The translations under genes and the position numbers were made by a program. From the NCBI GenBank assembly GCA_964583485.1, contig CAZOVC010000002.1, forward strand, positions 2,959 through 66,958: a DNA stretch of 64,000 nucleotides, read 5' to 3'. Positions 33,362 through 52,716 of the stretch are shown piece after piece. Source of the DNA: an uncultured Candidatus Saccharibacteria bacterium. Lineage in GTDB: Bacteria > Patescibacteriota > Minisyncoccia > Minisyncoccales > GWA2-38-27. Below the pieces are notes generated by a model, which was not told the origin of the DNA, made no database searches, and saw only the letters and a program-made list of their open reading frames with translations. Numbering within the stretch: position 1 is the stretch's first letter; each line of letters opens with the position of its first letter.

Positions 33362-33433
33362 CCTTGCTTATTGGAGGGAGATGGAATCGAACCATCGACC
33401 TGTCGTCTAAGACGACCTGCTCTCCCAACTGAG
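33362..33433 (-). tRNA. tRNA gene, 72 nt; anticodon loop reads UCUUAGA, so anticodon UUA (candidate ochre-suppressor tRNA); identity needs confirmation
   Basis: The minus strand reads GGGGGGA-TA-GCTC-AGTTGGGA-GAGC-A-GGTCG-TCTTAGA-CGACA-GGTC-GATGG-TTCGATT-CCATC-TCCCTCC-A. The acceptor stem pairs 7/7 with one G-U, the D stem is GCTC/GAGC, and the T arm is GATGG/CCATC with a TTCGATT loop. Position 33 is C and 27:43 is G:A, both unusual, so the anticodon register is uncertain. Confidence 0.7.
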
Positions 33434-33468
33434 CTATCCCCCCGATTTAAGGTACTACTACTATTATT

Positions 33469-33516: not shown

Positions 33517-33795
33517 TTATTTCTTTCTTATCTTAATTGCTTTTCCTTCAGTCAGGGCTTCAGCCACTTTCTTCCGAGCCGAAGTTAAAATTCGCTGAAG
33601 GGTGCTTTGGGAAACTTTCATTTTCTTTGCCGCTCCTTTTTGCTCTAAATCTTTCAAATCGCAAAGTCGCAACGCCTCCAGTTCGTCTATGGTTAAATCA
33701 ACCTCTTCCAATATAGATAAAGGCACTGCTCGGGGCTTAAAATAGACCACATCTGGATCAAATAATACTCTTCTTGGTTTTATTGGTCTGGCCAT
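33517..33795 (-). CDS. DUF134 (UPF0251) predicted DNA-binding protein
   Basis: MARPIKPRRV...EALRLCDLKDLEQKGAAKKMKVSQSTLQRILTSARKKVAEAL. Confidence 0.6.
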   Translation of the reverse strand: MARPIKPRRVLFDPDVVYFKPRAVPLSILEEVDLTIDELEALRLCDLKDLEQKGAAKKMKVSQSTLQRILTSARKKVAEALTEGKAIKIRKK

Positions 33796-34649
33796 AATTG
33801 ATTGAGATTTTTGAAAATCTCTTGAATTTCTTTTTTAACCCTTAAATTGGTTTTTAAGATTGGTTTTAAGTTGGCGATAGCTTTAAATATCTTTTGGTCA
33901 TAAGATATTTTACCCAAAAGGTTTTTGCCAGCCCATTTCTCTATTTTATCACTCAATTGAGAATTAATATCCCATTTATTTATTACCAAACCCCAAGATA
34001 TCTTGAAATGATTGACAACTTCCAAAACTCTTTTTAAATCAGTAAATCCAGAAGGCGTTGGCTCAGTAACTAAAATAACAAAGTTTGAGTCCTGCAAAGA
34101 AGCAATCACTGGACAACCAGTGCCGGGAGAAGAATCAATAAGCATTAAATTATATTTAAATTTCTCAGCTTCTTTTTTAATTTCGGTAACCACTTTACCA
34201 GAACCTGTTTCGCCTGGGTAAAGTTGACCTGAAACTAAAGGAAAACCATACTTTGTTCTCTTAATTCTAATTTCACCGTTCTGAACAGATTTAAGAGTTA
34301 TTGCTTTTTGGGGACATATAATCTCACAAGCTCCGCAACCCTCGCATAAAAATGGATTTACTTTAGGTTTGCCTTTTACCATTTTTATTGCCTCAAAACG
34401 ACACTTTTCAGCGCATAAACCACAACCGTTACATTTTTTAAAATTAACTTCTGCCTTAGCCGAGGTAACGACTGGCAAGGTCCTGTCCCATTTTTTTATC
34501 CCTCCTAACCAAATAGCCAAATTAGGAGCATCAACATCGCAATCAACTGCCACAATCTTTTTTTTGTCCTTAACAAAAAGCATTGCCAAAACCGAACACA
34601 ACATAGATTTTCCTACCCCTCCTTTTCCTGAAGCAATTACAAGTTTCAT
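33780..34649 (-). CDS. MinD/Mrp-superfamily P-loop ATPase with an inserted 2x[4Fe-4S] ferredoxin domain (COG1149-like), copy 1
   Basis: SGKGGVGKS Walker A plus CNGCGLCAEKC and CEGCGACEIICP cluster motifs. Confidence 0.65.
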   Translation of the reverse strand: MKLVIASGKGGVGKSMLCSVLAMLFVKDKKKIVAVDCDVDAPNLAIWLGGIKKWDRTLPVVTSAKAEVNFKKCNGCGLCAEKCRFEAIKMVKGKPKVNPFLCEGCGACEIICPQKAITLKSVQNGEIRIKRTKYGFPLVSGQLYPGETGSGKVVTEIKKEAEKFKYNLMLIDSSPGTGCPVIASLQDSNFVILVTEPTPSGFTDLKRVLEVVNHFKISWGLVINKWDINSQLSDKIEKWAGKNLLGKISYDQKIFKAIANLKPILKTNLRVKKEIQEIFKNLNQLWPDQ

Positions 34650-35413
34650 CTTTTTTTAAAAATTAAAGAAATTAAAAATATAAAAGTTGAAGATAAAATA
34701 ATCAAGGGACCAGCTGAAAAACCTGTGAGTTTAAACAACAACAATCCAAAAATGGCAGAAATTATTCCTATTGCTAAGGCTCCGAAAGAATAATAAGAAA
34801 GAGTCCTCCCAAAATTATTTGAAGCAGAGGCTGGAATTACTAACATTGCCACCGTTAAAAGACCCCCTACTATTTTTACTTCCAAAGCAACAATTAAGGC
34901 AATAGAAGCTAAATAAATTAGATTATATTTTTTAACATTAACTCCTTCTACTTTTGCTAAATCTTCTGAAATTCCAGATAAAATCATCTTTGAGTAAATC
35001 TTTTTAATAATCAAAAAAACAATTATTCCTAAAATTACAGCGAGAATTGTATCAATCAAACTTATTTTGCTAATATCTCCTATTAATGCCTCTTCGGCTT
35101 GAGAAACTGGCAAAATTAGAAAACTAAGAGCAACGCCAGCAGCAAAGACCAAGCCAGTTAAAGCTTCCATCGGCAATTTTGTCTTGATTTCCAAAAGCCA
35201 GATTATAACAGCCCCGATGACTATGGTTCCTAATGCTCCCCAAAAAATATTGAAATGGTAAAGCAAAGCCAGAGCTGCCCCAGGTAAAGCCAAGTGCCCC
35301 AGCGGTCCTCCTATCAAAGCCATTCTTTTGGTGAGCATTAAAGAGCCCAAGTATCCTGCCGCTCCTCCAATGAAAATTACTGTAATTAAACTTAAAATAA
35401 ATTGAGAAAACAT
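34646..35413 (-). CDS. ABC-3 family metal (Zn/Mn) ABC transporter permease
   Basis: 255-aa polytopic protein of ZnuB/TroCD type. Confidence 0.7.
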   Translation of the reverse strand: MFSQFILSLITVIFIGGAAGYLGSLMLTKRMALIGGPLGHLALPGAALALLYHFNIFWGALGTIVIGAVIIWLLEIKTKLPMEALTGLVFAAGVALSFLILPVSQAEEALIGDISKISLIDTILAVILGIIVFLIIKKIYSKMILSGISEDLAKVEGVNVKKYNLIYLASIALIVALEVKIVGGLLTVAMLVIPASASNNFGRTLSYYSFGALAIGIISAIFGLLLFKLTGFSAGPLIILSSTFIFLISLIFKKR

Positions 35414-35444
35414 ATTATTTGAAAATTAAAAATTGAAAATTATT

Positions 35445-36149
35445 TTAGTGGGTATGTTCGTAAAATTTAATTTCTGTTCCATATAGTTTCTCTAAATTTT
35501 CTGGAGTTAAAATTTCCTTAGGAAGCCCGGAACAAATTGCTTTTTTATTTAGACACAAAACATTAGTAGAATACTTATAAACAATATTTAAATCATGAGT
35601 AATTAGCAAGATGGTCAAATTTCTCTCTTCCCAAAATTTATGCAAAAGAGAATAAATAGTTTCTTCTCCTCCGATATCAATTCCGGCGGTTGGCTCATCA
35701 AAAAATAAAACTTGAGGATTCCCTATTAAACTCCAGCCAATCAACATTCGCTGGAATTGACCAGAAGATAAATTTCCCGGGTCTTTCTCCAAAATTTTTG
35801 GATTTTCTAATCCTACCAATTTTAACATTCTAAGAATTTTTTCATCGGAACTTTCTTTAAATTTAAAAAACTCCTTTACTGAAATTGGTATTTCTTTAAA
35901 TTTTGAACGAGACAAGCGTTCAGGCAGATAACCAATCTTTAGACTTTCTGGTGATGTCCAAGAAATTTCACCCTGATAAGATATTAACCCTAGTAAAGCT
36001 CTAAAAAGAGTAGTTTTGCCAGCTCCATTTGGCCCTAAAATAGTAAAAATTTCTCTTTCTTTAACTTTAAAAGACAAATTCTCAATGATTTTCTCGTCAT
36101 CTAATTCCACATTCAAATTTTTTACTTTTAAAATTGAATTTTCTGGCAT
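35445..36149 (-). CDS. Metal ABC transporter ATP-binding protein (ZnuC-like)
   Basis: GPNGAGKTT Walker A and an LSSGQ signature. Confidence 0.75.
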   Translation of the reverse strand: MPENSILKVKNLNVELDDEKIIENLSFKVKEREIFTILGPNGAGKTTLFRALLGLISYQGEISWTSPESLKIGYLPERLSRSKFKEIPISVKEFFKFKESSDEKILRMLKLVGLENPKILEKDPGNLSSGQFQRMLIGWSLIGNPQVLFFDEPTAGIDIGGEETIYSLLHKFWEERNLTILLITHDLNIVYKYSTNVLCLNKKAICSGLPKEILTPENLEKLYGTEIKFYEHTH

Positions 36150-36155
36150 AATTAC

Positions 36156-36791
36156 TTAAATTTTTTCTAAAATTTTAAAATCTTTTTTTAAGATTTCTTT
36201 CATATTTGAATTATAGGTTGCCACGGCCGGGTGATAAAAAGAAATAATTTTTACTTCTTTAATCTCTCTTCTTTTTTGTTCAAAAAGGGAACTCTGAACA
36301 TCTTCTGCAGTAACTTGAGGTTCAAATACTTTTCCGTGAATTTTACTAATTCCTTGAATTTGGTCTTTTAATCCAAACTTTTCCATTAAAAATTCCATTG
36401 CAAATCTCCCCAAAGGACAAATAATCTCTGGGTTAATAATTTCAATCTGTTTTTCCAAATAAGGAACGCAAGCTTCGATTTCCTCTTTTTGAGGATCGCG
36501 ATTACTTGGAGGTCTACATTTTAAAATATTGGCAATATAAACATCTTCTCTTTTTATACTAACAGATTCTAAAAGATCATCCAAAATTTTTCCTGCTGCA
36601 CCGCAAAAAGGATGACCGGTTTTATCTTCTTGAACTCCAGGCGATTCCCCAACAAACATTATTTTTGCCTGATGGCTCCCCTCTCCAATTACAGGATAAG
36701 TCCTTGTTTTATATAAAAAACATTTTCTACAACTTATAACCTCCTCTTTAATTTTTCTAAATTCTTGCCCTATATCCATAATTATGTTCAA
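36156..36791 (-). CDS. Family 4 uracil-DNA glycosylase (Fe-S)
   Basis: GEGSHQAKIMFVGESPG...HPFCGAAG motifs and an N-terminal Cys cluster. Confidence 0.7.
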   Translation of the reverse strand: MNIIMDIGQEFRKIKEEVISCRKCFLYKTRTYPVIGEGSHQAKIMFVGESPGVQEDKTGHPFCGAAGKILDDLLESVSIKREDVYIANILKCRPPSNRDPQKEEIEACVPYLEKQIEIINPEIICPLGRFAMEFLMEKFGLKDQIQGISKIHGKVFEPQVTAEDVQSSLFEQKRREIKEVKIISFYHPAVATYNSNMKEILKKDFKILEKI

Positions 36792-36819
36792 GGAGACCCG
36801 CTCTCCTTATTCTAAATTG

Positions 36820-36999
36820 CTAGAGATGACAGGTAGGACAGATATTGTCGGGCTTGGAATTTTTACCAATATTAGGGGCAGAAATTAATTTCTCCACCAT
36901 CTCGCTTTGGCATTTTGGGCATTTTATTTTCTCTTTTCCAAAAATTAATTTTTCAAACTTGTGGCCGCATTTTTGGCACTTGTATTCATAAGTAGGCAT
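36820..36999 (-). CDS. FmdB-family zinc-ribbon protein (unlisted 59-aa ORF)
   Basis: Hand translation gives MPTYEYKCQKCGHKFEKLIF...CPKCQSEM...CPTCHL, a classic FmdB N-terminus. Confidence 0.5.
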   Translation of the reverse strand: MPTYEYKCQKCGHKFEKLIFGKEKIKCPKCQSEMVEKLISAPNIGKNSKPDNICPTCHL

Positions 37000-37025
37000 A
37001 AATTTAAAGAAGTGAATTAAGTTTA

Positions 37026-37313
37026 TTAATTTCTTCCGCCGCGACCGCGACCTCTTCCTCTACCTGCGCCCATTCCTCTTCCTTCAAATCGCGAGGATCG
37101 ATAAGGAGATGGAGTTTCTGTTTCAGTTTTTCCTTCTTTGTCTATTTTTTCTATTGCTCCAATTGGGCAAACACCTTTTCCTCCGCACTGTTCAAGTTTT
37201 TCTTGATTAACAATTTCTGCCTTCCCATCAGCTCCTATTTTGGTTGCTCCGGGACAATTTACAATACAAATCTGGCAACTGGTACATTTTGATTTATTTA
37301 TTCTATATGACAT
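37026..37313 (-). CDS. 4Fe-4S ferredoxin-like protein with a Gly/Arg-rich C-terminal tail
   Basis: CTSCQICIVNCP ... CGGKGVCPIGAI followed by GRGMGAGRGRGRGRGGRN. Confidence 0.5.
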   Translation of the reverse strand: MSYRINKSKCTSCQICIVNCPGATKIGADGKAEIVNQEKLEQCGGKGVCPIGAIEKIDKEGKTETETPSPYRSSRFEGRGMGAGRGRGRGRGGRN

Positions 37314-37370
37314 AAATTTTAATTTGGACTATATTGTGTTATCCGATTTTTTCAAAAATCAAATCGACTT

Positions 37371-38639
37371 TTATTTAATGTTATTTGCTATTCTTGTTAA
37401 GGCTAAAGAAAAGGCTGCCTCTCCTGAAGAAATACCCTTCTCTTTTTTAAATTCCCAAACCCTATCAAAGGCTTGACCTATTTTCTTTGAAACTTCTCTT
37501 AATACTTCCTTTTTGTTCTTTAACTGCCTTTCCTTGCCTTGAACCCACTCAAGGTAAGAAGCAATAACTCCACCAGCATTAACTAAAATGTCAGGAACAA
37601 TAATTTTATTATTTTTCATTAGAATCGCTTCTCCTTTTTCAGTAAGGGGTCCGTTAGCTATAGAAAGTATGTATTTTGCTTTAATATTAGGAGCGTTTTC
37701 TTTGGTAATTACACTTTCAACCGCTGCCGGAACTAAAACATCAACATCCAGCTCAAGAAGTTCTTTATTAGAAATCTCTTTTCCTTCTTGAAAATCACAA
37801 ACTGAACCTCGGCAGTAACATCCAGCTATTTTATTGTTTATTTCTCTACACTCTGAAACCTTTTCTGGGTCAAGACCTTGTTTTAAATATATCCCTCCAT
37901 TTTTCTCTGAAAGAGCTACAATTTTATAGCCCTTTTCAAAAGCATATTTAGCAAAATGCTCACCGACATTGCCAAATCCCTGGATAGCAAGAGTAGTTTT
38001 TTTGGGGGAAAAATTATAAATTTCTTTCAATTTTTCTAAAACAACAAAAGCCCCATATCCCGTAGCTTCTTTTCTTCCTTTAAGACCCCGCAACTCAATC
38101 GGTTTTCCAGTAAAAGATTCTGGGGTGAATTTTCCCGCTAATTTAGAATATTCATCCACCATCCAAGCCATAATCTGAGGATTAGTATTAACGTCAGGAG
38201 CAGGGATATCAGTATCCGGTCCAATAAACGGAAAAACTTCTCTTACATACTGACGGGAAACTTCCTCTAATTCTCTCCGGCTCAAATTAAACGGGTTAAC
38301 TGTCACTCCTCCTTTTGCTCCTCCGAAAGGCAGCCCAACCAGAGAAGTCTTCAAAGACATTAGTATAGATAAAGCCACTACTTCTTTTTCAGAAACTCTT
38401 GGATGAAAACGAATGCCTCCTTTATAAGGCCCTAAAGTATTGTTATGTTGAGAACGATACCCTAAAAAAATCTCCTTCTTGCCATTGTCTTTAATAACAG
38501 GCACCTGAAACTTGACCACTCTTCGCGGGATTCTTATTTGCTTGGCAATTTGGCTGGAAAGTTCATTAAACTCAATTGTTCTTTCTATCTTTTTTTGAAT
38601 AGAATCTAAAAAAATTTCCTTTGGCATATTATGTTTCAT
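37371..38639 (-). CDS. gdhA: Glutamate dehydrogenase (Glu/Leu/Phe/Val dehydrogenase family)
   Basis: LGPYKGGIRFHP and GLPFGGAKGG motifs. Start trimmed to the Met that overlaps the ferredoxin stop codon. Confidence 0.8.
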   Translation of the reverse strand: MKHNMPKEIFLDSIQKKIERTIEFNELSSQIAKQIRIPRRVVKFQVPVIKDNGKKEIFLGYRSQHNNTLGPYKGGIRFHPRVSEKEVVALSILMSLKTSLVGLPFGGAKGGVTVNPFNLSRRELEEVSRQYVREVFPFIGPDTDIPAPDVNTNPQIMAWMVDEYSKLAGKFTPESFTGKPIELRGLKGRKEATGYGAFVVLEKLKEIYNFSPKKTTLAIQGFGNVGEHFAKYAFEKGYKIVALSEKNGGIYLKQGLDPEKVSECREINNKIAGCYCRGSVCDFQEGKEISNKELLELDVDVLVPAAVESVITKENAPNIKAKYILSIANGPLTEKGEAILMKNNKIIVPDILVNAGGVIASYLEWVQGKERQLKNKKEVLREVSKKIGQAFDRVWEFKKEKGISSGEAAFSLALTRIANNIK

Positions 38640-38817
38640 CTTCAATTTTTTGAATAGCGTCAAAAGGGCAAATTTCCTGACACGTTCCACACTTTTGGCA
38701 TTTGCTTTGGTCAATAAAAGCTTTTCCGTCTTCCCCTATTTTAATTGCTCCGTAAGGACAAGCTTGAAGACAAGCTCCACATCCGGCGCATTTTGACTTG
38801 TTAACTTTGAATTTCAT
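38629..38817 (-). CDS. 2x[4Fe-4S] ferredoxin
   Basis: CAGCGACLQACP and CQKCGTCQEICP. 62 aa. Confidence 0.75.
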   Translation of the reverse strand: MKFKVNKSKCAGCGACLQACPYGAIKIGEDGKAFIDQSKCQKCGTCQEICPFDAIQKIEDET

Positions 38818-38831
38818 ATTTTAATAATTTT

Positions 38832-39629
38832 CTAATTTTTTTCTTGTTTAATGAATAGACATTGTTCTTTTTTTGCTTTCCCATCTAAAACTGCTCTGAT
38901 AAACTCATTACAGGATTTAAATCCGCACTTTCCGCAATTCAAATTAGGAACTAAATTTTTCAACTCTTTGCCCTTTAAATATCTTTGTTGAACGGCAGTT
39001 TCATCAATAGTTTTATTTCCATAACAATAACCGCAAATTGCCGAAGGCATAGAATGCTTTAAAGTTAATTTTCCTGTTTTAATTTCCGGAGATGCTTTAA
39101 TAGCTTCAACAATATCAATCACTCCCTCGCCGGTTAACCCATTTACCTCTACTAACTTAGCTTGAGAATTAACACTTAAAATGTTATCTCTAAAAATTTC
39201 TCTCTCGGCTTGTGATATTAAATCTCCCTTGCTGACAGCCACAATATCCGCTTGAGTTAAAATAGGACCATAGCAATCAGGACTTCCAGAAATAACATCT
39301 AAAACGTTAATTCCTAATCCTTCTTTAATATAAGGGGAACAACGAAGACATAGGCCCGCTGTTTCCAAAATAATAATATCTTTATCTCGGTTTTCTTTAA
39401 TAATTTTGGGAATTTCTAAGGCAGTATAATGATCGGGGCAAAGTTCACCGGCTAATTTTTTAACAACCGGAATTTTGTATCTTTCAGAAATAAATTGGTC
39501 ATCTTTGGTATTCAGACAATCAAATTTAGCAAAAAATAATTTAAAGTCAGTTTTTAATTCCTGAATTGCATATTTGATAACACTGGTTTTTCCTGAACCG
39601 GGAGTTCCGGCAAAAATTACAAATTTCAT
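38832..39629 (-). CDS. G3E-family P-loop GTPase-like metallochaperone (HypB/UreG/CobW-like) with a Cys-rich C-terminal extension
   Basis: FAGTPGSGKTS P-loop, ETAGLCLRC, SKGD, and a C-terminal CGYC...CGKCGFKSC region. Confidence 0.45.
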   Translation of the reverse strand: MKFVIFAGTPGSGKTSVIKYAIQELKTDFKLFFAKFDCLNTKDDQFISERYKIPVVKKLAGELCPDHYTALEIPKIIKENRDKDIIILETAGLCLRCSPYIKEGLGINVLDVISGSPDCYGPILTQADIVAVSKGDLISQAEREIFRDNILSVNSQAKLVEVNGLTGEGVIDIVEAIKASPEIKTGKLTLKHSMPSAICGYCYGNKTIDETAVQQRYLKGKELKNLVPNLNCGKCGFKSCNEFIRAVLDGKAKKEQCLFIKQEKN

Positions 39630-39698
39630 ATTATTTCAAGATTATATAATTTTACCTCAGCGAATCAAGGTTCTGCCAAGCGTTAGCAAGGCAGGTTC

Positions 39699-40493
39699 TT
39701 ATTTCACTGGCTCACAAAATATTTCTACTTTTTCAACTTTTTCTCCTCCTCTTATTTTTTCTCTAATTTCTAAGCCATAATTTCCCACCCAATTAAAATA
39801 ATGACCAATACCTTTCTCTTTTAAAGTAGTTTTTAGAATTTTAACAATTCCTCCGTTTTTAACCACGATTCTTTTGTCGGTATTAAAAGCTAAAACAGGA
39901 TCGTGGGTAACAATTAAAACAATTTTCCCTTCCTCTGCTAAAATCTGCATTGCTTTTTCTTTATCAATTCCAGCATTCTCTATCTCATCAATTAAAATAA
40001 TCGGAGAAATACTAACATTAGCGACATCCGAAATCATTAAAGCCCGGCTTTGCCCTCCTGATAAATTCAGGAGATTCATCTCTGGTGAAATTGGTTCGCC
40101 GGTTATCTCGTTCGCTTCTTCAATAACTTCTTTTATTAATTTTGGATTAAATCTTTTCCCCCTGGCTTTCAAATGTAAACTCAAAAAATCTTTGACAGAA
40201 ATGTCTGTTAAAAAGTTCATAGATTGGGCCAAAGAGGCAATCAGTTTTCTTTTTGGGTCAAATCGTAATTTTTTATCCACCCTTTTATCATTTATTAAGA
40301 TCACTCTCTTACTTTTGGTATCGCCTTGAGCCAACCTTTCAATATCATAAAGAAGTTGGCTTTTTCCTGCTCCGGTTTGTCCTACAATAGCTACAATTTC
40401 TCCTTTTTTAATCTCAATTCTTTCAAATTTTTCTTTTTCCTCAAACTTATTTACTCCCGGTAAAATAGTAATTTTTTCGATTTCGGTTTTCAT
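39699..40493 (-). CDS. ABC-type ATPase (no cognate permease adjacent)
   Basis: GQTGAGKS Walker A, LSGGQ signature, ILIDE Walker B. Confidence 0.55.
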   Translation of the reverse strand: MKTEIEKITILPGVNKFEEKEKFERIEIKKGEIVAIVGQTGAGKSQLLYDIERLAQGDTKSKRVILINDKRVDKKLRFDPKRKLIASLAQSMNFLTDISVKDFLSLHLKARGKRFNPKLIKEVIEEANEITGEPISPEMNLLNLSGGQSRALMISDVANVSISPIILIDEIENAGIDKEKAMQILAEEGKIVLIVTHDPVLAFNTDKRIVVKNGGIVKILKTTLKEKGIGHYFNWVGNYGLEIREKIRGGEKVEKVEIFCEPVK

Positions 40494-41323
40494 AAATTAA
40501 AATTTAGTAATTTCCCTTTTGAATAAGCTTTAACAATTTTTTTTGAATAAGGAATTTCTTTTTCTATTTTTATTTTATATTTTCTAAGAATAGAAGAAAT
40601 TTTTCTTTTATCTCCCAGGTCAGCTTGATTTAAAATTACTTTAACTGGCACTCCAAGTTTTTGGCATAAATCCAAAATCAAATTTAAATCATAAACACCC
40701 ATTGGGGTAGGTTCAGTAACAGCATAAGCCAAATCACAATCCAAAAGAGCGGAAATTACCGGACAGTGAGTGCCAGCAGCCGTATCAAGCAAAACGTAAT
40801 CTGCCTTAATTTTTTCAGCAAAGTTCAAAGCAAATTTTTTGGTTTGAGTTACCACAGGACCCGTTTCCTCAAGACCTGGTTTGGCAACGCCAGTTACTAA
40901 CCAGTAATCTTTTTTAATTTTATTTAAAAAGACCTGCCCGACTTCCTCCTTTTTTGGCTGAATGGCTTTATGCGGACAGACTATCCAGCAAGCTCCACAG
41001 CCAGAACATAAATCTTTAATAAATATTGGATATTCCCCTGGAGCTTGAAAAACAGCATTACTTCGGCAGGTAGTAACACATAATCCGCATTTTTTACATT
41101 TTGTTTTATCTAATGTCGGAAATTCAGCGTATATTTTCTTTTCTGACTTTTGAATCTTAACTCCTATTAACAAATAATCATTGGGGCATTCAACGTCGCA
41201 GTCAACTAAAACAACTTTTTTGCCCTTTTTGACAAAATTATTTGCCATCAAAACAGCAACAGTTGACTTGCCAGTTCCTCCTTTTCCTCCCGTGATTGCT
41301 ATGGTTTTAATTCTTTTGGCCAT
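40490..41323 (-). CDS. MinD/Mrp-superfamily P-loop ATPase with an inserted ferredoxin domain, copy 2
   Basis: TGGKGGTGKST, plus CKKCGLCVTTC and CSGCGACWIVCP. Confidence 0.65.
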   Translation of the reverse strand: MAKRIKTIAITGGKGGTGKSTVAVLMANNFVKKGKKVVLVDCDVECPNDYLLIGVKIQKSEKKIYAEFPTLDKTKCKKCGLCVTTCRSNAVFQAPGEYPIFIKDLCSGCGACWIVCPHKAIQPKKEEVGQVFLNKIKKDYWLVTGVAKPGLEETGPVVTQTKKFALNFAEKIKADYVLLDTAAGTHCPVISALLDCDLAYAVTEPTPMGVYDLNLILDLCQKLGVPVKVILNQADLGDKRKISSILRKYKIKIEKEIPYSKKIVKAYSKGKLLNFNL

Positions 41324-42561
41324 TCTTTTATTATTTCTACCTCAATGCCAAAGTTTTCTAAATTTTGTTTAGCATTATCACCAATCTGTTGCGCTAAAAC
41401 TTTGTCCGCCCTCACTGCTTTGGTAAATCTTGCTCCATGAGGAGAACCTTGCTCAAAGTAGGGATTTTTAATCACTTTTTTTAATAAAATATTTCCATCT
41501 TTTTTATCTATAACTAAATACTGACCCGCGCCGAATTGTGAACTTAGTTCTTTATTTTCTAAAGGGATAATAATTCTTTCTCCCATTTTCTTAGGCCCGA
41601 TTTGCTCAAAGCCTTCCAGCGCTCCTATTCTCTTTCCCAGTTTAGGCAAAACAACGCTCCTGGCGAGCTCATAAGCCTCAATAGAAATAACTATTTGCTT
41701 TAATTCTGGAATATTTGTGAGCAATCTTTCCTCTAAAGTACTGATTATTTTTTGAACATCTTCAACTTTTAATTTTGGAGCCAGTTTAATTTTTATTTCA
41801 GCGAAATTAAAAGCTCCAATTTTTCTGGTTTTTAAATTAGAAATTTCTATTTTGTGGGAAGAACAAATCTTTTCAATTCTTCCTTCTACGTCTTTATTAG
41901 CTACATCCAGCAAAGAATCAGTAATCTCTCTTCCCACTCTAAATGCCTCATAGAGAATATAGCCGCCAATAAATAAAGCAATTATGGCATCCGCTGAATT
42001 GAAATATCTAACTAAACTAAGCCCCGCTAAAACACCAATTGAACTAAGAACGTCAGCTCTTGAATGCTCGGCATCAGCAACCAGGGCTAAACTTTGATGC
42101 TTTCTTCCGTAATGAAATTTTAATCTGGCTAAAACTTCTGTAATTAGAATGGAGATAACTACCACTGCTATTGCCCCAACACTAAGTTTGACTATTTTTT
42201 CTTCAAAAAATCCCGTAACTGCTTCATACAAAATCCAAATACCAGATACCGCCAGCAATAGAGCTACCAAAAAACCAGCCAAACTTTCTGCTTTCCAATG
42301 GCCGTAAGGGTGTTTTTCATCAACTGGCTTTCTGGCTATCTTCAATCCCAAAAAAGTAATAAAAGAAGAAAAAACATCCAAACCAGAATGTACTCCATCG
42401 GCAATTAAAGCCACACTGCCAATTAAAAAACCAAAAATTAGCTTAGATATTCCTAAACCTAAATTAACAAAAATGCTGATTATTGAAACAGATTGAGGGT
42501 TCATATTCTTCCTCGACCTCTCCTTCTCTGACCAGGTCCTGCTCCAAAACCAGGCCCGCAA
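41299..42561 (-). CDS. Cation diffusion facilitator (CDF) transporter fused to a C-terminal NifX/NafY-like domain
   Basis: CDF TM core with the HSGLDVFSS motif. The C-terminus (ERIIIPLENKELSSQFGAGQYLVIDK...VLAQQIGDNAKQNLENFGIEVEI) resembles the dinitrogenase FeMo-cofactor-binding fold. Confidence 0.55.
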   Translation of the reverse strand: MRAWFWSRTWSEKERSRKNMNPQSVSIISIFVNLGLGISKLIFGFLIGSVALIADGVHSGLDVFSSFITFLGLKIARKPVDEKHPYGHWKAESLAGFLVALLLAVSGIWILYEAVTGFFEEKIVKLSVGAIAVVVISILITEVLARLKFHYGRKHQSLALVADAEHSRADVLSSIGVLAGLSLVRYFNSADAIIALFIGGYILYEAFRVGREITDSLLDVANKDVEGRIEKICSSHKIEISNLKTRKIGAFNFAEIKIKLAPKLKVEDVQKIISTLEERLLTNIPELKQIVISIEAYELARSVVLPKLGKRIGALEGFEQIGPKKMGERIIIPLENKELSSQFGAGQYLVIDKKDGNILLKKVIKNPYFEQGSPHGARFTKAVRADKVLAQQIGDNAKQNLENFGIEVEIIKEWPKELKP

Positions 42562-42905
42562 GGCGCTGCTCCTTTCGCCTCTTGAAGCTTGCCTCTCTGA
42601 TATTCTTGAAGAACGTCTCGCACACTCATTGCTGGATTACCGAGAAAAATCTTTATTCCAGAAGTGCCTAAAACCATTGAAGCGTTAGGTCCAACATTTC
42701 CAGTAATCACTATCTCAACTTTCTCCTTAGCTACAATTTGGGCAGCCGAAATACCAGCGCCTCTCATCGCCTGCACCCCGGTATTTTTAATTGTTTTAAT
42801 TAGTTTTCCCTTATCACTAACAATCAAAAAATACATCGCTCTGCCAAAACGAGGGTCTAAAGCTGTATCTAAATTATTACCGGTAGCGCTAATACAAATT
42901 TTCAT
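42501..42905 (-). CDS. NifX/NafY-like (dinitrogenase iron-molybdenum cofactor family) protein with a Gly/Arg-rich tail
   Basis: MKICISATGNNLDTALDPRFGRAMYFLIV..., tail GPGFGAGPGQRRRGRGRI. Confidence 0.55.
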   Translation of the reverse strand: MKICISATGNNLDTALDPRFGRAMYFLIVSDKGKLIKTIKNTGVQAMRGAGISAAQIVAKEKVEIVITGNVGPNASMVLGTSGIKIFLGNPAMSVRDVLQEYQRGKLQEAKGAAPCGPGFGAGPGQRRRGRGRI

Positions 42906-42910
42906 AATAT

Positions 42911-42946
42911 TTTATCCCCACTACCAAAATTTGGTGTGGGGATTTA
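42911..42946. repeat. Copy C (degenerate) of the bulged palindromic element, filling the whole intercistronic gap and supplying the TAA stop of the upstream (minus-strand) gene
   Basis: The sequence tttatccccactaccaaaatttggtgtggggattta spans from the NifX-like start codon to the DUF5320-like gene stop. Confidence 0.5.
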
Positions 42947-43168
42947 TCTGGTTCTGGTCATTGCCCCGCCGCATTTAGGGCATTTGTGTTCATAGCAAGG
43001 CACTCCTCTTTGATGAGGCGTTTTTGTCCCACAACTTGGACAAACACATTCACCCCCAGGACCTAAACCGTAACCACCGGACTGACGACCACGACCGCCG
43101 CCCCTGCCTAAACCTTGTCCTGTTCCTGGCCCCTGACCAGCAGGACCTGTACCATTAAAATTTGGCAT
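42944..43168 (-). CDS. DUF5320-like N-terminal motif protein with a C-terminal zinc ribbon
   Basis: [28 protein letters not shown] ... CVCPSCG...CPKCGG. Confidence 0.45.
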
Positions 43169-43169
43169 A

Positions 43170-43427
43170 TTATTTTTTCTTTTTTAGTTCCTCAAGTCGG
43201 TCCTCAAAAACCTTCATCTGTTCTTTCAACGCATTCATATCTTCTTGAATCATTTCTTTTTCTTCTTTAGCAGTCGGCTGAGCTGCAGGATAATACCCCC
43301 AACGCCTCCAACCCCTTCCTCTGCCAAACCAACCTCGCCCAAAACCAATTCCGCCTCCGCAAGGGCCTAAACCTCTTCCCGTCATTGGACCTTGACTTAA
43401 AGGACCCGTTCCATCTCTAAATGGCAT
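43170..43427 (-). CDS. DUF5320-like protein (Gly/Arg-rich N-terminus plus C-terminal coiled coil)
   Basis: [42 protein letters not shown] ... [24 protein letters not shown]. Confidence 0.5.
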
Positions 43428-43515
43428 GATTTTTTTACTCTTAATTTTATTATATACAATAATCGACCTTTATCTCGTAGAAAAACGAAATTTCTCTTTC
43501 GGATTCTCTATTTTG

Positions 43516-43544
43516 ATTATAAACCCATAACCATACGGTGTCAA
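43516..43544 (-). promoter_or_regulatory. Consensus sigma-70 promoter on the minus strand (TTGACA, 17-nt spacer, TATAAT) heading the minus-strand gene run from 43427 down to 33517
   Basis: The minus strand reads TTGACAccgtatggttatgggttTATAAT. Confidence 0.5.
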
Positions 43545-43626
43545 CACTCTATTTATCCCCAACTTACTCCGCGGGATAAGGACTGTTAGAATCTGTTTAT
43601 TAAACCTATAAATAAAGCGCTTCTTG

Positions 43627-44046
43627 TTATTGCTGCGGTGGAGTTATTTCCGGTCTCAATTGAATTGATTGAGCAGCAATACTTCCATCTGAATTAACAG
43701 CGCCGTTTACAGTAATATTTTTGCCAATTTCAAGATCGCTCAAAGCGCCTTCTGCAGATTTTGTAATTTCCATAGAATCAGACAAGAATACGATTTTTGA
43801 TCCCCCGTCCTGAATCTTAAGCGTAATGCTTTTGTCGTCTTGGGAAATAATTTCTCCAACAATTAATCCGCCTCGAAAGCCACCGCCACCATTTACGCCA
43901 GGCTCTCTTAATCTTTGCGAATCTTGAAAATCCGCTTGAAGGAAACGACCTTGAGGGCTTTTACTATCAGCATATTTCATCCCACCATAAAATGAACCAC
44001 CTCCAACTACTACTAACGAAATTATAATAATAATTATTTTTTTCAT
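43627..44046 (-). CDS. Secreted hypothetical protein (signal/TM helix plus Gly-rich segment)
   Basis: 139-aa ORF. Related in layout to 47851..48288. Confidence 0.4.
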   Translation of the reverse strand: MKKIIIIIISLVVVGGGSFYGGMKYADSKSPQGRFLQADFQDSQRLREPGVNGGGGFRGGLIVGEIISQDDKSITLKIQDGGSKIVFLSDSMEITKSAEGALSDLEIGKNITVNGAVNSDGSIAAQSIQLRPEITPPQQ

Positions 44047-44081
44047 ATAATTTTTTAGTTATGATTAATTAATTGATTTAT

Positions 44082-45299
44082 TTATTCATATCTTAACGCT
44101 TCTATTGGATTCAATGACGCCGCTCGTCTTGCTGGATAATAGCCAAAGACGATCCCGATTGTGGCTGACACCCCGAACGCAAGAATAATTGCTTGAACAG
44201 AGACCTGAGTGGCAATGCCGGTAAATTGAGTAACAAGAATTGAGATAATCCATCCAAGGATTATGCCCATCGCGCCTCCCAAAAAAGTGAGCGTTACTGC
44301 TTCGGCGAGAAACTGTATTGAAATATCTTTTTTCTTCGCGCCTATGGATTTACGGAGTCCGATTTCGCGCGTACGTTCGGTTACGGTTGTAAGCATCATA
44401 TTCATAATGCCAATACCACCGACGATGAGTGAAATGCCAGCAATAGCAGCAAGTAGAATTGTAAAAGTATCAGTAACTTGTGTTGCTGCTCCAACAATAT
44501 CTGCCTGTGAGACAATAGAAAAATCCGGGCTTTGTGGATCAACACTATGCTTGTCAGCAAGCATAAGAGTTGCTTCCTGTTGAACTTGAGGCATAAGACC
44601 CTTGGTCTCAACACTTATTGCAATAGATGAAAGATAATCCCCGCCAGCTAAAATTTTCTGCATAGTAATAAGCGGCACAAATACAGTATCATCAGAATTA
44701 AAAAAACCCGCACCACCCTTTGGCTGAAGCACCCCGACAACTTTAAAGTTAAGCTTATTGATGCGTATAGTTTTACCAATTGGATCTTGATATTCAAATA
44801 GATCAGTGGCAACAGTAGAGCCTAATACTGCGACCCGGCCTACACTTCGCATATTGTTTTCAGTAATAAAAGAGCCATTTTCTACTGATACATTCCGCAC
44901 TTCGGCATATTCGGGAGACACGCCAATTACTGTTGAATTAGTATTGTTTCCTAAGGGTGAAATGATTTGATATCGTCCTTGCCGTTCCGGCGATATATAT
45001 GCTATTCCAGCGACTTGACGAAGCGTATCAACATCATCATTTATGAGTGTTTGCGCCGAACCACGACCTTGAGACACAAAACCTTTACCCTGTTGGGAAA
45101 ACCCAGGACTTACAGTAAGTAAATTTGAACCAAGACTTTCAATACTTGATTGAATTTGTCCCGATGCGCCTTGACCAATAGAAACCATAGCGATAACCGA
45201 ACCAATGCCGATGACAATACCAAGAACTGTAAGACCAGACCTCGCCTTATTTGCTGAAAGAGCGGTATATATTTCTTGAAAAATATCTTGAACTTTCAT
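44082..45299 (-). CDS. MacB/FtsX-family ABC efflux permease
   Basis: MacB periplasmic core followed by an FtsX 4-TM domain. 405 aa. Confidence 0.75.
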   Translation of the reverse strand: MKVQDIFQEIYTALSANKARSGLTVLGIVIGIGSVIAMVSIGQGASGQIQSSIESLGSNLLTVSPGFSQQGKGFVSQGRGSAQTLINDDVDTLRQVAGIAYISPERQGRYQIISPLGNNTNSTVIGVSPEYAEVRNVSVENGSFITENNMRSVGRVAVLGSTVATDLFEYQDPIGKTIRINKLNFKVVGVLQPKGGAGFFNSDDTVFVPLITMQKILAGGDYLSSIAISVETKGLMPQVQQEATLMLADKHSVDPQSPDFSIVSQADIVGAATQVTDTFTILLAAIAGISLIVGGIGIMNMMLTTVTERTREIGLRKSIGAKKKDISIQFLAEAVTLTFLGGAMGIILGWIISILVTQFTGIATQVSVQAIILAFGVSATIGIVFGYYPARRAASLNPIEALRYE

Positions 45300-45300
45300 T

Positions 45301-46020
45301 TTAGGTTGTGATGTTGTAATTATTAATAACGCGCCGATTTTTCACCCTTCCATCTTCCACGATGTTCCCATCACGAATATGAATAATACGTTCGGCATGC
45401 TCGGCAACATATTGTTCGTGAGTAATTAAAACAATCGTGCGACCTTGTTCTTGGTGAAGCCGTTGAAAAGTATCAAGCACCACTTCGCCGGTTTTGGTAT
45501 CAAGATTACCTGTCGGCTCATCGGCAAGCACGAGCGTCGGATTATTAACTAAAGCGCGGGCAATAGCGACTCTTTGCGCCATTCCACCAGAAAGTTGATT
45601 GGAATAATGATTCCAAAAGTTTTCTGGAAAGGCCGAACCACGCAAGGCCTCCTTTGCTTTATTTTCCCGTTCTTCTTTAGAGACGCCGGCGTATACTAAA
45701 GGAAGCATTACATTGCGAAGCACAGTGGTTCGTGGCAAAAGATTGAACGTCTGAAACACGAAGCCAATTTTTTGTACCCGAATATCTGCCAGTTCGTCAT
45801 CGGATAATTTTGACACGTCTTTGTTATTAAGTAAATATTGACCATTAGTAGGTGTATCTAAACATCCAATGATATGCATTAATGTTGACTTGCCAGAACC
45901 AGAAGGTCCCATAATAGCGACGAATTCGCCGTCATTGATTTTGAACGACGCGCTTTTGAGCGCGTGCGTTTCTATCTCTCCATTTTTGTAAATTTTGGCG
46001 ATATTTTTGCATTCAATCAT
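45301..46020 (-). CDS. ABC transporter ATP-binding protein (MacB/LolD type)
   Basis: GPSGSGKSTLMHIIGCLD, LSGGMAQR, LVLADEPTGNLD. Confidence 0.85.
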   Translation of the reverse strand: MIECKNIAKIYKNGEIETHALKSASFKINDGEFVAIMGPSGSGKSTLMHIIGCLDTPTNGQYLLNNKDVSKLSDDELADIRVQKIGFVFQTFNLLPRTTVLRNVMLPLVYAGVSKEERENKAKEALRGSAFPENFWNHYSNQLSGGMAQRVAIARALVNNPTLVLADEPTGNLDTKTGEVVLDTFQRLHQEQGRTIVLITHEQYVAEHAERIIHIRDGNIVEDGRVKNRRVINNYNITT

Positions 46021-51922: not shown

Positions 51923-52159
51923 CTAAATATCAAAATAACTGTCAATTTCTTCTCTCACTTCTTTAATCAGTTTTTTCTTTTCATCTTTCAATTCAAATGC
52001 TTCTTTTACCAATTTTGTAATTTTATCAATAGAATTTTTGTCTAAAATTGGTATTTTAAAATCAAGAAGACGATTTGAAATTGTTGGTATTGTTGATTGA
52101 ATTACAGTGTACTTTTCGCTTTGGCATCCGGCGACTTCTTTTATTGTTGGACTAAAAGG
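51923..52159 (-). pseudogene. Start-less C-terminal gene fragment (about 78 codons, ...IKEVAGCQSEKYTVIQSTIPTISNRLLDFKIPILDKNSIDKITKLVKEAFELKDEKKKLIKEVREEIDSYFDI*); probable remnant of a gene truncated by the GC-rich insertion
   Basis: Hand-translated from the minus strand. Host-like AT-rich codon usage. The open frame runs into the 52154-52241 hairpin with no start codon. Confidence 0.3.
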
Positions 52160-52241
52160 GGTCAGGTACCTTTTTTACCTTTTTTAGGTCTTCCCCTAGG
52201 ATTTAATGTTGAGTTAAAATAAAAGGTACCTGACCCCTTTT
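52154..52241. other. Large perfect hairpin: 21-bp arms aaaaggggtcaggtacctttt / aaaaggtacctgacccctttt around a 46-nt loop
   Basis: Read from the sequence. Lies at the junction between host-like DNA and the GC-rich segment. Confidence 0.5.
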
Positions 52242-52598
52242 ATTTTACACATCGTTGAAGTTGAAGTAGGGCGCGTTCGAGAAATCGCCATCAGCGTCAG
52301 GTTAATTGCCTCCACTCATCCATGTCACCAGACCGCGAAGTTTACTGCCTTAAGGATTATATCTTTTTGGTCTTGTATTTTATTCGGCAGCATCCCGCTA
52401 AAAGCGGGAACCTGCGCTAAGCAGAGGCAAGCAGTATCTCCTCAGCACAACACGCTCTTAGAAACCGTAGTCGCTAAGACTCTGGTTGCTTTTCTCCTAA
52501 AGAGAGAGTTCGGCGACAGCAATCCGTAAACTACTATGCATTAGCCTAAGCTCATTTATAAGTATATTGAATTCTAAAAAAGAAGCAAGTTTTTGAGA

Positions 52599-52636
52599 TA
52601 AAAAAAGAGGGTTATCCGTGTTAGTATGGATAACCC
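52599..52636 (-). terminator. Rho-independent terminator on the minus strand (gggttatcc/ggataaccc then tcttttttta)
   Basis: Downstream of the 52709..53578 gene and its octamer repeats. Confidence 0.55.
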
Positions 52637-52652
52637 TTAAAATTTGTCGCGA

Positions 52653-52716
52653 ATTCAAGGATCAAGATACAAGAAGTCAAAAGACTCAAGAACTCAAGAC
52701 TTCGAGATTCAAGACT
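52653..52716. repeat. Eight tandem degenerate octamers (minus strand: agtcttga atctcgaa gtcttgag ttcttgag tcttttga cttcttgt atcttgat ccttgaat) starting at the stop codon of the 52709..53578 gene
   Basis: 8-nt periodicity with a conserved tcttga core. Lies in the 3'UTR before the terminator. Confidence 0.45.

Follow-up and report, generated by a model that had tools for sequence, protein, structure and literature searches.

What connects sixteen co-directional genes for iron-sulfur (Fe-S) proteins, metal transporters and small proteins of poorly characterised families in a Patescibacteria-like genome, and what might they do together? These genes lie on the minus strand of a 64-kb stretch of contig CAZOVC010000002.1 (the whole stretch analysed, here called the window; window coordinates are used throughout), where an earlier note had proposed a self-contained metallocofactor or Fe-S delivery module within a recurrent but functionally unassigned neighbourhood. 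We find that the cluster is a composite, in which a conserved frame of seven genes encloses a hypervariable slot of nine genes between the genes for two MinD-type ATPases with a ferredoxin insert (MinD-Fd). A palindrome, TTATGRRTATATAYYCATAA, sits at the head of these operons and is exclusively associated with them. The metal and Fe-S theme is real. The cluster is not self-contained, since its slot varies and part of the slot is an independent module. Nor is the neighbourhood wholly without a functional assignment, since it corresponds to the orange protein (ORP) complex of Desulfovibrio and its tailed NifX protein resembles IssA of Pyrococcus furiosus. The gene families and the ORP-type neighbourhood are already known. 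We found no description, in the literature searched, of the palindrome, of a conserved leader motif, of the architecture of CDF::NifX fusion, DUF5320 pair and slot, or of the module of ABC ATPase, G3E GTPase with an FeS domain and ferredoxin. Taken together, domain content and comparison with known systems suggest a function in Fe-S storage or trafficking tied to metal transport.

All 16 reported minus-strand open reading frames (ORFs) are present, with the same coordinates, in the ORF list for 32-45.5 kb, and the ten-kilobase co-directional cluster described earlier stands as such. Three over-extended starts were corrected (CDF to ATG 42504, glutamate dehydrogenase to ATG 38627 and uracil-DNA glycosylase probably to ATG 36779), after which the coding span is 33517-43427, with intergenic distances from -25 to +69 nt and five overlaps. 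The consensus promoter at its head was likewise borne out: read directly from the sequence, TTGACA-17 nt-TATAAT at 43516..43544 on the minus strand is a sigma-70-type site with 12/12 consensus positions. A scan of the minus-strand intergenic gaps of the cluster gave no terminator-like sites. The two largest gaps each hold a 10/12 promoter-like site, at 39668-39641 before the G3E gene and at 37355-37328 before the gene for a tailed ferredoxin, so that one single transcript is plausible but not proven. The single promoter for all 16 genes that had been proposed is a plausible and the simplest reading of these signals.

Because the minus strand carries 53 of the 61 long ORFs of the window, co-directionality by itself is weak evidence of common function, and the genes could, together with the two internal promoter-like sites, be read as a chance juxtaposition in a compact, mostly co-directional genome. 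We regard this as extremely improbable. The frame order is kept in dozens of species-level genomes, a near-identical expanded layout occurs in one of them (L037), the palindrome is found only at the operon head, and five gene pairs overlap.

The conservation of the frame emerges from comparison with relatives. The CDF::NifX protein is 88% identical to its counterpart in Parcubacteria bacterium DG_72 and 83% identical to those of complete Candidatus Nealsonbacteria genomes, and the host is thus Patescibacteria-like, as the earlier note had supposed; the same contig recurs in several JGI and Logan metagenomes. Neighbourhoods were read for five progressively more distant CDF::NifX homologues, and 80 species-level genome loci were fetched by DUF134 alignment and annotated by phmmer with the 16 window proteins and ten extra queries. 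The frame or parts of it are found in these 80 genomes, which upholds the claim that DUF134, MinD-ferredoxin, NifX and DUF5320 genes form a recurrent neighbourhood. Its order is DUF5320, a DUF5320-like zinc ribbon, a tailed NifX protein, CDF (with or without the NifX fusion), MinD-Fd2, the slot, MinD-Fd1 and DUF134. Upstream DNA of at least 6 kb was available for 48 loci; of these, 24 encode both ATPases, 26 a NifX domain, 25 a CDF protein and 31 a DUF5320 protein; a bare adjacent DUF5320-DUF134 pair is present in 17, and such pair-only loci include the cultured Minisyncoccus archaeiphilus (L056) and Candidatus Microsyncoccus (L060). Gene content and synteny show that the frame is common in the phylum.

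The slot is as variable as the frame is constant. It is empty in L012, contains CMD in L011, CMD with LigD_N and HD in L013, ZnuCB in DG_72 (L014), and a thioredoxin (Trx)/FTR-B fusion with FmdB, lactamase_B, uracil-DNA glycosylase (UDG), LigD_N and ZnuCB in L015. Across 79 loci the cargo includes family 4 UDG (UDG4) in 20, ZnuC in 20, CMD in 10, Trx in 8 and G3E in 1. The window slot is made up of sub-blocks that recur elsewhere: an ABC ATPase, a G3E/FeS GTPase, a ferredoxin and glutamate dehydrogenase (GDH); FmdB and UDG4; and ZnuC and ZnuB. Much the same layout is found in L037 (CDF::NifX, MinD-Fd2, ABC, G3E/FeS, ferredoxin, GDH, FmdB, a lactamase remnant, UDG4, ZnuC, ZnuB, MinD-Fd1, DUF134), at 59-87% protein identity. 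The expansion that had been singled out is thus rare in its exact form (1 of 79 genome loci) and built on a frame that is common, and where scattering in relatives was the question, the frame proves syntenic and the interior partly scattered.

UDG4, an Fe-S enzyme, stands next to MinD-Fd1 and DUF134 as the most frequent cargo, sometimes with a LigD phosphoesterase domain. The loci listed with it are L013, L015, L024, L030, L034, L037, L043, L048, L050, L063-L068, L072, L081, L083, L088, L090 and L093.

A further regularity lies upstream of the first gene. When the 170 nt preceding DUF5320 were aligned for about 45 loci, a head consensus emerged, TTGACA-N7-8-GTTATGGGTATATACTCATAAT, which contains a near-perfect 20-bp palindrome (half-sites TTATGrGTAT and ATACyCATAA) overlapping the -10 element. 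With zero mismatches to the degenerate pattern, 25 genome loci each hold exactly one copy of the palindrome; it heads the cluster in 45 of the 67 loci that are informative, most of the remainder being truncated. In the window, the candidate DUF134 operator TTATGGGTTTATAATCAAAA at 43511..43530 on the minus strand is a three-mismatch copy of the palindrome TTATGGGTATATACTCATAA that covers the promoter spacer and the -10 element, and it is the sole match in the 64 kb, where none is expected by chance. Its mismatches degrade the right half-site but create the consensus TATAAT, and DG_72 carries the same variant. An independent test was provided by a metagenome scan with the palindrome alone, which returned 120 loci, 110 of them informative in that the site does not lie at a contig edge. 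The first gene downstream belongs to the family set in 106 of these 110 (DUF5320 in 76, DUF134 in 26, the zinc-ribbon relative in 3 and NifX in 1), so the palindrome is dedicated to these operons.

DUF134 (UPF0251; 33517..33795, minus strand), the last gene of the operon, encodes a helix-turn-helix (HTH) protein of 92 aa that matches PF02001 with 90.8 bits (E 9e-26, cut-off 27) and, weakly, Sigma70_r4 and HTH_3. Its match in the PDB is the DeoR HTH (E 4e-4), and a PDB search gave no solved structure for it beyond generic HTH matches. In an AlphaFold2 model (pLDDT 69 overall, 72-86 in the helices), three helices superpose on sigma region 4 and on the DeoR/SorC HTH at 0.6-1.1 Å, with E-values that are weak for so short a domain. 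The protein is 84-100% identical across many lineages of the candidate phyla radiation (CPR), paralleling the conservation of the site. Since no other DNA-binding candidate is found in every case, DUF134 is likely the palindrome binder and an autoregulator of these operons; the overlap of the palindrome with the -10 element suggests repression by a dimer. Taken by itself, this regulatory architecture is one we consider quite probable.

Two loci labelled archaeal, in metagenome-assembled genomes (MAGs) of Methanosarcinales (L094) and Aenigmatarchaeota (L098), have a different arrangement, in which DUF134 heads the cluster instead of closing it, in the order DUF134, NifX, MinD-Fd, (CDF::NifX), MinD-Fd, and there is no palindrome. 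With the DUF134 of the window their own share 60-64% identity, and mis-binning is possible.

A second conserved element follows the palindrome. In the window, RNAfold predicts a 5' leader hairpin, TAGAGAAtcCGAAAgagaaaTTTCGtTTTTCTA, at 43478..43510, and the leader motif AAAGGTCG, conserved in leaders and unique in the window, lies at 43464..43471 (both minus strand). Of 143 distinct leaders, 63 contain AAGGTC, against a mean of 2.7 and a maximum of 8 in shuffled sequences, and its median distance downstream of the palindrome is 15 nt. In 41 of 91 motif-bearing leaders, 6 bp or more of stem close a loop whose 3' end reads (A)AAGGTCG or xAGTCx, and about half of the leaders have the motif without a stem. 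The stem sequences are diverse (GGCAG/CTGCC, GATAGYC/GRCTATC, GGTAAC/GTTACC, GAGGGG/YYCCTC). Thirty-five aligned hairpins, preselected for having a stem, have all 7 of 7 pairs changed on both sides, with a covariation of 0.54 versus 0.31 in shuffles and 0.09-0.22 in slid controls; by the fairer, unbiased comparison of each leader with its own shuffles, 28 of 91 beat 95% of them, where about 5 are expected. In the subclade of the window, L014 and L025 the motif follows the hairpin instead of sitting in its loop, and pair-only operons have CTAGTCA-type loops instead. No Rfam family was matched by the leader of the window (at the gathering threshold) or by those of ten hairpin-bearing loci (at an E-value threshold). 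Placement of AAAGGTCG within a second promoter, TTGAAA-17-TATAAT, fits L050, L064 and L065 but not most loci, the window included. The motif may be an element of the RNA or else a second site in the DNA.

These elements allow a bolder proposal, in which DUF134, the palindrome and the AAAGGUCG leader hairpin constitute an undescribed phylum-wide autoregulatory circuit; the system under its control would store or traffic iron and sulfur as an anionic Fe-S polymer, held by an IssA-like NifX protein and by the DUF5320 proteins as free-standing tails, and in which the RGG-like region of DUF5320 might bind the leader RNA. We put this forward tentatively and think it rather unlikely to hold as a whole. 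If true, it would give ORP-type clusters a regulator and a function, in culturable organisms such as Minisyncoccus.

What the operon would control is suggested by the proteins of the frame. Searches with Pfam and NCBIfam models at curated cut-offs bore out nearly all of the family assignments made from the sequence, including DUF134 and NifX (PF02579); the second DUF5320 protein fell below its cut-off. DUF5320 #1 (43170..43427, minus strand as for all genes below; 85 aa) matches PF17253 over the full model length with 74.4 bits (E 2e-20, cut-off 27). Across 43 homologues, the protein is built of a near-invariant MPxxDGTGPxGxGPxTGRGxGxCG motif, a Gly/Arg/aromatic-rich region and a C-terminal coiled-coil helix. 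The N-terminal region has a median length of 57 aa, an isoelectric point (pI) of 10.4, 30% Gly and 16% aromatic residues, with GRGWGRGFG-type repeats after the leading motif, and the GxGxC cysteine is near-invariant (39/43).

The second small protein (42944..43168, 74 aa) matches positions 1-50 of PF17253 with 22 bits, against the cut-off of 27, and DUF5320 #1 by phmmer at E 3e-5. Its N-terminal half is Gly/Arg-rich and its C-terminal half is a strongly conserved six-Cys ribbon (CxCPxCG..PHxRGxPCY..KCPxCG), which no Pfam or NCBIfam model matches. Orthologues hold the same position in at least 15 loci, with the ribbon consensus GFGLGPxGECxCPxCGxxxPHxRGxPCYxxKCPxCGxxMTR (6 Cys, 1 His). It is better described, by its domain make-up, as a DUF5320 N-terminal motif joined to a novel six-Cys ribbon.

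The stand-alone NifX protein (42501..42905, 134 aa) matches PF02579 with 71 bits (E 1e-19), and its best PDB matches are the orange protein 2WFB (E 7.7e-17) and then MTH1175 (1e-16). Its C-terminal Gly/Arg tail, GPGFGAGPGQRRRGRGRI, is cationic, with 26 aa, pI 11.8, 31% Gly and 4% aromatic residues. Tails at this frame position (25 homologues) have a median of 36 aa, pI 11.8, 28% Gly, 21% Arg+Lys and 8% aromatic residues; other NifX copies in the same loci are without such tails (pI 8.3, 6% Gly). A reading of the Gly/Arg tails as encapsulin cargo signals was rejected: there is no shell gene, and the EncFtn-like genes that occur close to L011 and L012 show no synteny.

The next gene (41299..42504), whose start ATG overlaps the stop of the NifX gene as ATGA, encodes a CDF transporter that matches PF01545 (170 bits), TIGR01297 (223 bits, cut-off 82) and the ZT_dimer domain PF16916 (34.7 bits). 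Pfam does not detect in the window protein the NifX-like domain that the earlier note had seen fused to it. That assignment is nonetheless supported by three results, which together point to a second NifX-like domain fused to the CDF: the C-domain partly matches the Di-Nase domain in the MrpORP model of NCBIfam (E 3e-5), many close CDF homologues are annotated with PF02579, and hhalign relates 57 CDF C-terminal domains to the NifX proteins found in these loci (97.6% probability, E 4e-12, over 76 columns). The fusion is common in Parcubacteria, and no description of it was found in the literature searched.

The two MinD-Fd ATPases, copy 2 (40490..41323, 277 aa) and copy 1 (33780..34649, 289 aa), are 36% identical. 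Both have a deviant Walker A, GKGGxGKS, and a CbiA/ParA P-loop domain interrupted by two Fer4 motifs (CxxCxxCxxxCP), in agreement with the description of COG1149. In copy 2 (39 homologues), where the Walker A reads GKGGTGKS, the eight cluster cysteines, C46 (DCDVECPN) and C187 (GxHCPV) are 100% conserved. In copy 1 the cluster-2 cysteines and C179 (PGTGCPV) are 100% conserved, and the cluster-1 residues C73 and C76 are present in only 67% of homologues. The conserved GxxCPV cysteine of both proteins sits after switch II. A PDB search gave no solved structure for the MinD-ferredoxin family, and the literature searched held no functional study of DUF134 or DUF5320 and nothing functional for COG1149/1433/1342.

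Since these ATPases belong to the MinD/ParA class and have its deviant Walker A, they might serve in cell division or positioning, as was first proposed for Desulfovibrio ORP; a role in division and polar localisation have been discussed for ORP and MrpORP (PMC3897727; PMC4672049; PMC6345978). For ORP itself such a role was never demonstrated. The neighbours of the ATPase genes here are all related to metals or Fe-S, with no division gene among them, and both the ferredoxin insert and the GxxCPV cysteine speak for redox or cluster chemistry. A division function is accordingly improbable in our view.

The closest parallel for the frame is the ORP complex itself. Orp3 and Orp4 of Desulfovibrio are Mrp/ParA/MinD-like paralogues with 41% similarity and two [4Fe-4S] ferredoxin motifs each (PMC6345978). 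They co-purify with Orp8, which is the orange protein, belongs to PF02579 and binds Mo and Cu in a Mo/Cu-S cluster, and Orp9 (MrpORP), an Mrp/NBP35 domain fused to PF02579, passes Fe-S clusters to Orp3-Orp4-Orp8 (PMC6345978; PMC4672049). The genes form two operons, DVU2105-2103 and DVU2107-2109, under sigma-54/OrpR control (PMC8359166; PMC3897727). The window frame shares with this system, compared for Orp3/Orp4 by published description, two paralogous MinD/ParA-like 2x[4Fe-4S] proteins, a single-domain PF02579 protein (which matches D. gigas 2WFB at 8e-17), a PF02579 domain also fused to another protein, clustered and co-regulated genes, and anaerobe-associated genomes. The orp operons and their synteny were reportedly defined by Fievet et al. 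in 2011. Both NifX domains and both ATPases give partial matches of 23-52 bits to the NCBIfam MrpORP model (NF041136, cut-off 450). The differences are equally clear: the cluster encodes no Mrp/NBP35-type MrpORP and has its second PF02579 domain on the CDF instead; it is arranged as one sigma-70 operon with a palindrome and DUF134, whereas Desulfovibrio has two divergent sigma-54 operons with OrpR and integration host factor (IHF), and no enhancer-binding protein is found in the locus; and DUF5320 proteins, cationic tails and a cargo slot between the ATPase genes are added. We found no paper linking Patescibacteria to ORP or IssA in the literature searched.

IssA provides the parallel for the tails. 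It consists of a PF02579 domain and a 70-aa cationic Gly/Arg/aromatic tail with 14 aromatic residues, proposed to bind thioferrate; MTH1175 is placed in the IssA clade, and there is an uncharacterised mesophilic IssX clade with high-pI, Gly-rich tails (PMC5524996). The window NifX protein likewise has a PF02579/IPR003731 domain, and its tail, presumably disordered, is cationic and Gly-rich, of high pI and with a Cys, but shorter than that of IssA (26 aa, median 36 aa in relatives) and low in aromatic residues; MTH1175 is its second-best solved homologue. The DUF5320 N-terminal region shares the Gly/Arg/Trp/Phe repeat chemistry of IssA, a likeness of composition only. In the window, by contrast, the aromatic-rich cationic sequence is on separate small DUF5320 proteins, and the genomic context differs. 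PF02579 is also shared with NifX, NafY and the NifB C-terminal domain, where it binds anionic metal-sulfur clusters, but there are no nitrogenase or nif genes here, and the best matches of the window protein are ORP and MTH1175.

With a Mo/Cu orange protein as best solved homologue (2WFB), and with FeMo-co and its precursors bound by the PF02579 family (PMC5524996), the frame might instead handle heterometallic Mo, W or Cu-S clusters, for which the CDF and G3E proteins would supply other metals. Neither the cluster nor its relatives contain a molybdate or tungstate transporter or a molybdopterin gene, and cationic tails suit an anionic Fe-S polymer better. We know of no reason for Mo/W enzymes in a reduced Patescibacteria genome, and we consider this alternative improbable.

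We prefer a reading, to which we give about an even chance, in which a DUF134-autoregulated operon encodes an ORP-like complex of ATPases and NifX protein, IssA-like carriers hold anionic Fe-S and the CDF::NifX fusion couples it to metal flux. DUF134, a small HTH protein of sigma-region-4/DeoR type that is taken to be able to dimerise, would bind the palindrome over the promoter spacer and -10 element and so exert negative autoregulation, with the AAAGGTCG leader element as a possible second control point. The two ATPases, Orp3/Orp4-like, may dimerise on ATP and form a complex with the orange-protein/IssA-like NifX protein. The cationic tail of NifX and the DUF5320 proteins could hold an anionic Fe-S species, either a cluster or a thioferrate-like polymer, and the CDF (of a type for Zn2+, Fe2+ or Co2+) would, through its fused NifX domain, couple membrane metal flux to the Fe-S pool. 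Around these, the slot would gather suppliers and dependents: the G3E trio, GDH, the tailed ferredoxin, FmdB, UDG4 and ZnuBC. Which protein binds the palindrome, whether the frame proteins form a complex, what inorganic species they hold, which metal crosses the membrane and what signal is sensed are matters of inference here.

Does the metal rather than the Fe-S pool define the operon? The slot ends in a ZnuC-like ABC ATPase (35445..36149, 234 aa, PF00005) and a ZnuB-like ABC-3 permease (34646..35413, 255 aa, PF00950 at E 2e-43), which fall short of the ZnuC (149 bits, cut-off 306) and ZnuB (100 bits, cut-off 284) equivalogs and qualify by ABC-3 family membership alone. The ZnuB stop overlaps the MinD-Fd1 start by 4 nt, and ZnuCB lies directly upstream of MinD-Fd1 in L014, L015, L025, L030, L034, L037 and others. 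This tight coupling in the closest relatives would suit a zinc or divalent-cation homeostasis operon under a metal-responsive DUF134, with NifX and ferredoxin as accessories. So would the CDF, which has HxxxD in both TM2 (ADGVHSGLD) and TM5 (ADAEHSRAD), as read from its translation, a site A signature that we take to be of the Zn/Co/Cd type; the HypB/UreG-like G3E protein with CxxC after ExxG; the Cys ribbons of FmdB and the DUF5320-like protein; and L221, where GDH, ABC, G3E, ferredoxin and ZnuCB occur without the ORP frame. But ZnuC (20 of 79 loci) and G3E (1 of 79) are optional cargo, whereas MinD-Fd and NifX are constant partners, and DUF134 has no His/Cys ligands. No ZnuA-type binding-protein gene was seen in the cluster or adjoining ZnuCB, and the specific NCBIfam models that fit the CDF best, though none reaches its cut-off, are those of the iron-type MamB/MamM and FieF. 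The CDF resembles FieF/YiiP, CzcD/ZitB and MamB/MamM transporters in its full-length superfamily match, ZT_dimer domain and HxxxD motifs, and differs in the extra C-terminal NifX-like domain. We think zinc homeostasis an unlikely primary function.

The first part of the slot brings in a set of genes with a history of its own. The ABC-type ATPase (39699..40493, 264 aa, PF00005) has no adjacent permease partner of its own and matches only generic nucleotide-binding domains in the PDB. It lies directly upstream of the G3E/FeS gene in all 8 of 8 neighbourhoods (the window, L037 and six G3E-anchored ones: L016, L017, L018, L219, L220 and L221). The G3E GTPase (38832..39629, 265 aa) matches PF02492 with 38.7 bits (cut-off 20.7) and ends in a 4-Cys PF04060 domain; it scores 48 bits with the HypB equivalog (cut-off 121) and also misses the UreG equivalog cut-off. 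Its motifs are Walker A GTPGSGKT, ETAG followed by an invariant CLRC, SKGD, an invariant CGYC and the PF04060 Cys set. Although only remotely HypB-like by sequence, its AlphaFold2 model (pLDDT 78.5, pTM 0.77) has HypB 2HF8 (4e-11) and UreG as top Foldseek matches. With HypB/UreG and with COG0523 proteins encoded near znu genes it shares the G3E fold, Walker A, ExxG with a Cys motif, SKGD and an operon with ZnuCB; it differs in its PF04060 domain, in its ABC ATPase and ferredoxin partners, and in the absence of a hydrogenase or urease. The 2x[4Fe-4S] ferredoxin (38629..38817, 62 aa, Fer4 E 3e-19) completes the trio, and in all six G3E-anchored neighbourhoods such a ferredoxin comes after the G3E gene, either next to it or with one gene between.

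G3E/FeS homologues about 76-89% identical are found in MAGs labelled Babeliales, Wolfebacteria, CPR3 and others, and the trio is an independent module, about 80% identical across distant candidate phyla (Parcubacteria-labelled MAGs included), whose function we did not find described in the literature searched. Its usual companions are thioredoxin, an FTR-B-like protein (PF02943) and a regulator of the CsoR family. DUF5320 and DUF134 genes lie within 6 kb in 3 of the six G3E-anchored neighbourhoods, and the trio recurs within DUF134 operons in L018, L219, L037 and the window. The order in L018 is a DUF5320-like small protein, DUF134, one further gene, ABC, G3E, ferredoxin and FTR-B; its first gene is DUF5320 by Pfam, and the best phmmer match of that gene is the window zinc-ribbon protein. 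In L219 a palindrome-headed operon holds the trio (DUF5320, NifX, NifX, ABC, G3E, ferredoxin, Trx, FTR-B, MinD-Fd, one further gene, CDF, DUF134). GDH and ZnuCB accompany the trio elsewhere too, since L221 has the order GDH, ABC, G3E, ferredoxin, one further gene, ZnuC, ZnuB with no ORP frame.

The remaining slot genes are GDH (37371..38627, 418 aa from ATG 38627; ELFV_dehydrog, GdhA_Arch 408 bits), which adjoins the ABC/G3E/ferredoxin block also in L037 and L221; a 95-aa ferredoxin (37026..37313, Fer4/Fer4_15) with a cationic Gly/Arg tail (pI 11.8) that is shared by one homologue only (L064), and with six Cys, by which it looks like a single-cluster type; an FmdB-family zinc ribbon (36820..36999, 59 aa; 59 bits; PF09723 and TIGR02605), found also in the slots of L015 and L037; and UDG4 (36156..36791; TIGR00758, 214 bits), whose ORF starts at TTG 36791 and whose likely start is ATG 36779.

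The cargo of other genomes is what lends weight to a redox or oxidative-stress regulon, in which DUF134, perhaps with the DUF5320 cysteine as sensor, would co-regulate a loose set of thiol-redox, DNA-repair and metal genes that build no physical Fe-S machine, with the ORP-like proteins as one redox-sensitive group among them. Slot cargo across genomes is mostly Trx/FTR-B, CMD (AhpD-like), UDG4, LigD phosphoesterase, HD and lactamase_B; the DUF5320-DUF134 pair stands alone in about one third of loci; the GxGxC cysteine is near-invariant; and Desulfovibrio orp expression is under a redox-sensing regulator (PMC8359166). In other genomes the trio is flanked by FTR-B-like and thioredoxin genes, as in ferredoxin:thioredoxin reductase systems. 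The window differs: its 64 kb contain no Trx, FTR-B-like, CsoR or CMD homologue and no peroxidase or superoxide reductase gene. ATGA and longer overlaps couple the translation of the frame genes, their order is fixed across the phylum, and the covalent NifX-CDF fusion argues for a physical system. A redox regulon is a possibility to be taken seriously, though we doubt it.

Several observations weigh against the Fe-S storage or trafficking reading that we prefer. MrpORP, the component with demonstrated Fe-S transfer, is absent from the cluster; the orange protein itself binds Mo/Cu and not an Fe-S cluster; and the NifX tail of the window has 26 aa versus 70 in IssA and is poor in aromatics. GDH, LigD_N and HD are slot cargo without obvious Fe-S logic. 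About one third of DUF134 operons consist of DUF5320 and DUF134 only, so the regulator pair is not strictly tied to the Fe-S frame. On the regulatory side, the right half-site of the window palindrome is degenerate at its 3 mismatches, DUF134 has no conserved metal or redox ligands, and a protein encoded elsewhere might be what binds the palindrome. The 80 loci are, finally, the best matches to the window DUF134 and so biased toward close relatives.

The function of the anaerobe-specific ORP complex has been unresolved since its description in 2011, and this locus and its relatives offer a testable entry to it in ultra-small Patescibacteria, whose management of iron, sulfur and trace metals is little known. 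The handles are an operator for a conserved 92-residue HTH protein, a two-gene DUF5320-DUF134 unit that occurs in cultured species too, and a fixed seven-gene frame. The cargo list hints at clients (UDG4, ferredoxins) and suppliers (ZnuBC, the G3E GTPase), and the ABC/G3E-FeS/ferredoxin trio is a second lead.

Downstream of DUF134, at a distance of 74 nt, lies the sole tRNA gene of the window (33372-33443, minus strand), with a promoter of its own at 33496-33469 (12/12, extended -10 TG). ARAGORN calls it tRNA-Stop with anticodon UUA, and the Rfam tRNA model gives 55.6 bits. The anticodon loop reads UCUUAGA, with C33 instead of U33; there is a G27-A43 mismatch; and the acceptor stem combines G3:U70 with A73, both identity elements for alanine. 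The commonest stop codon is TAA (33 of 61 long window ORFs, 10 of 16 operon genes), so a general ochre suppressor seems unlikely. No similar tRNA was found in 60 related loci, and an exact search of viral contigs did not find its anticodon and T arms; it is also present on the other contig of the same organism (L001).

Directly upstream of the operon, at 43627-46020 on the minus strand, the window encodes a MacB/FtsX-type ABC exporter and a YknX/RND-adaptor-like protein. Similar exporter genes adjoin related clusters, following DUF134 in L013 and preceding the G3E module in L016, and this placement could be coincidence or a loose association. Further along, about 2 kb at 50.7-52.7 kb are without any ORF of at least 120 aa. 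The GC content is 0.41-0.46 at 42000-46000 and 52000-54000, versus 0.31-0.35 elsewhere in the window, and the rise at 42-44 kb is explained by the Gly/Arg-rich coding of the first operon genes.

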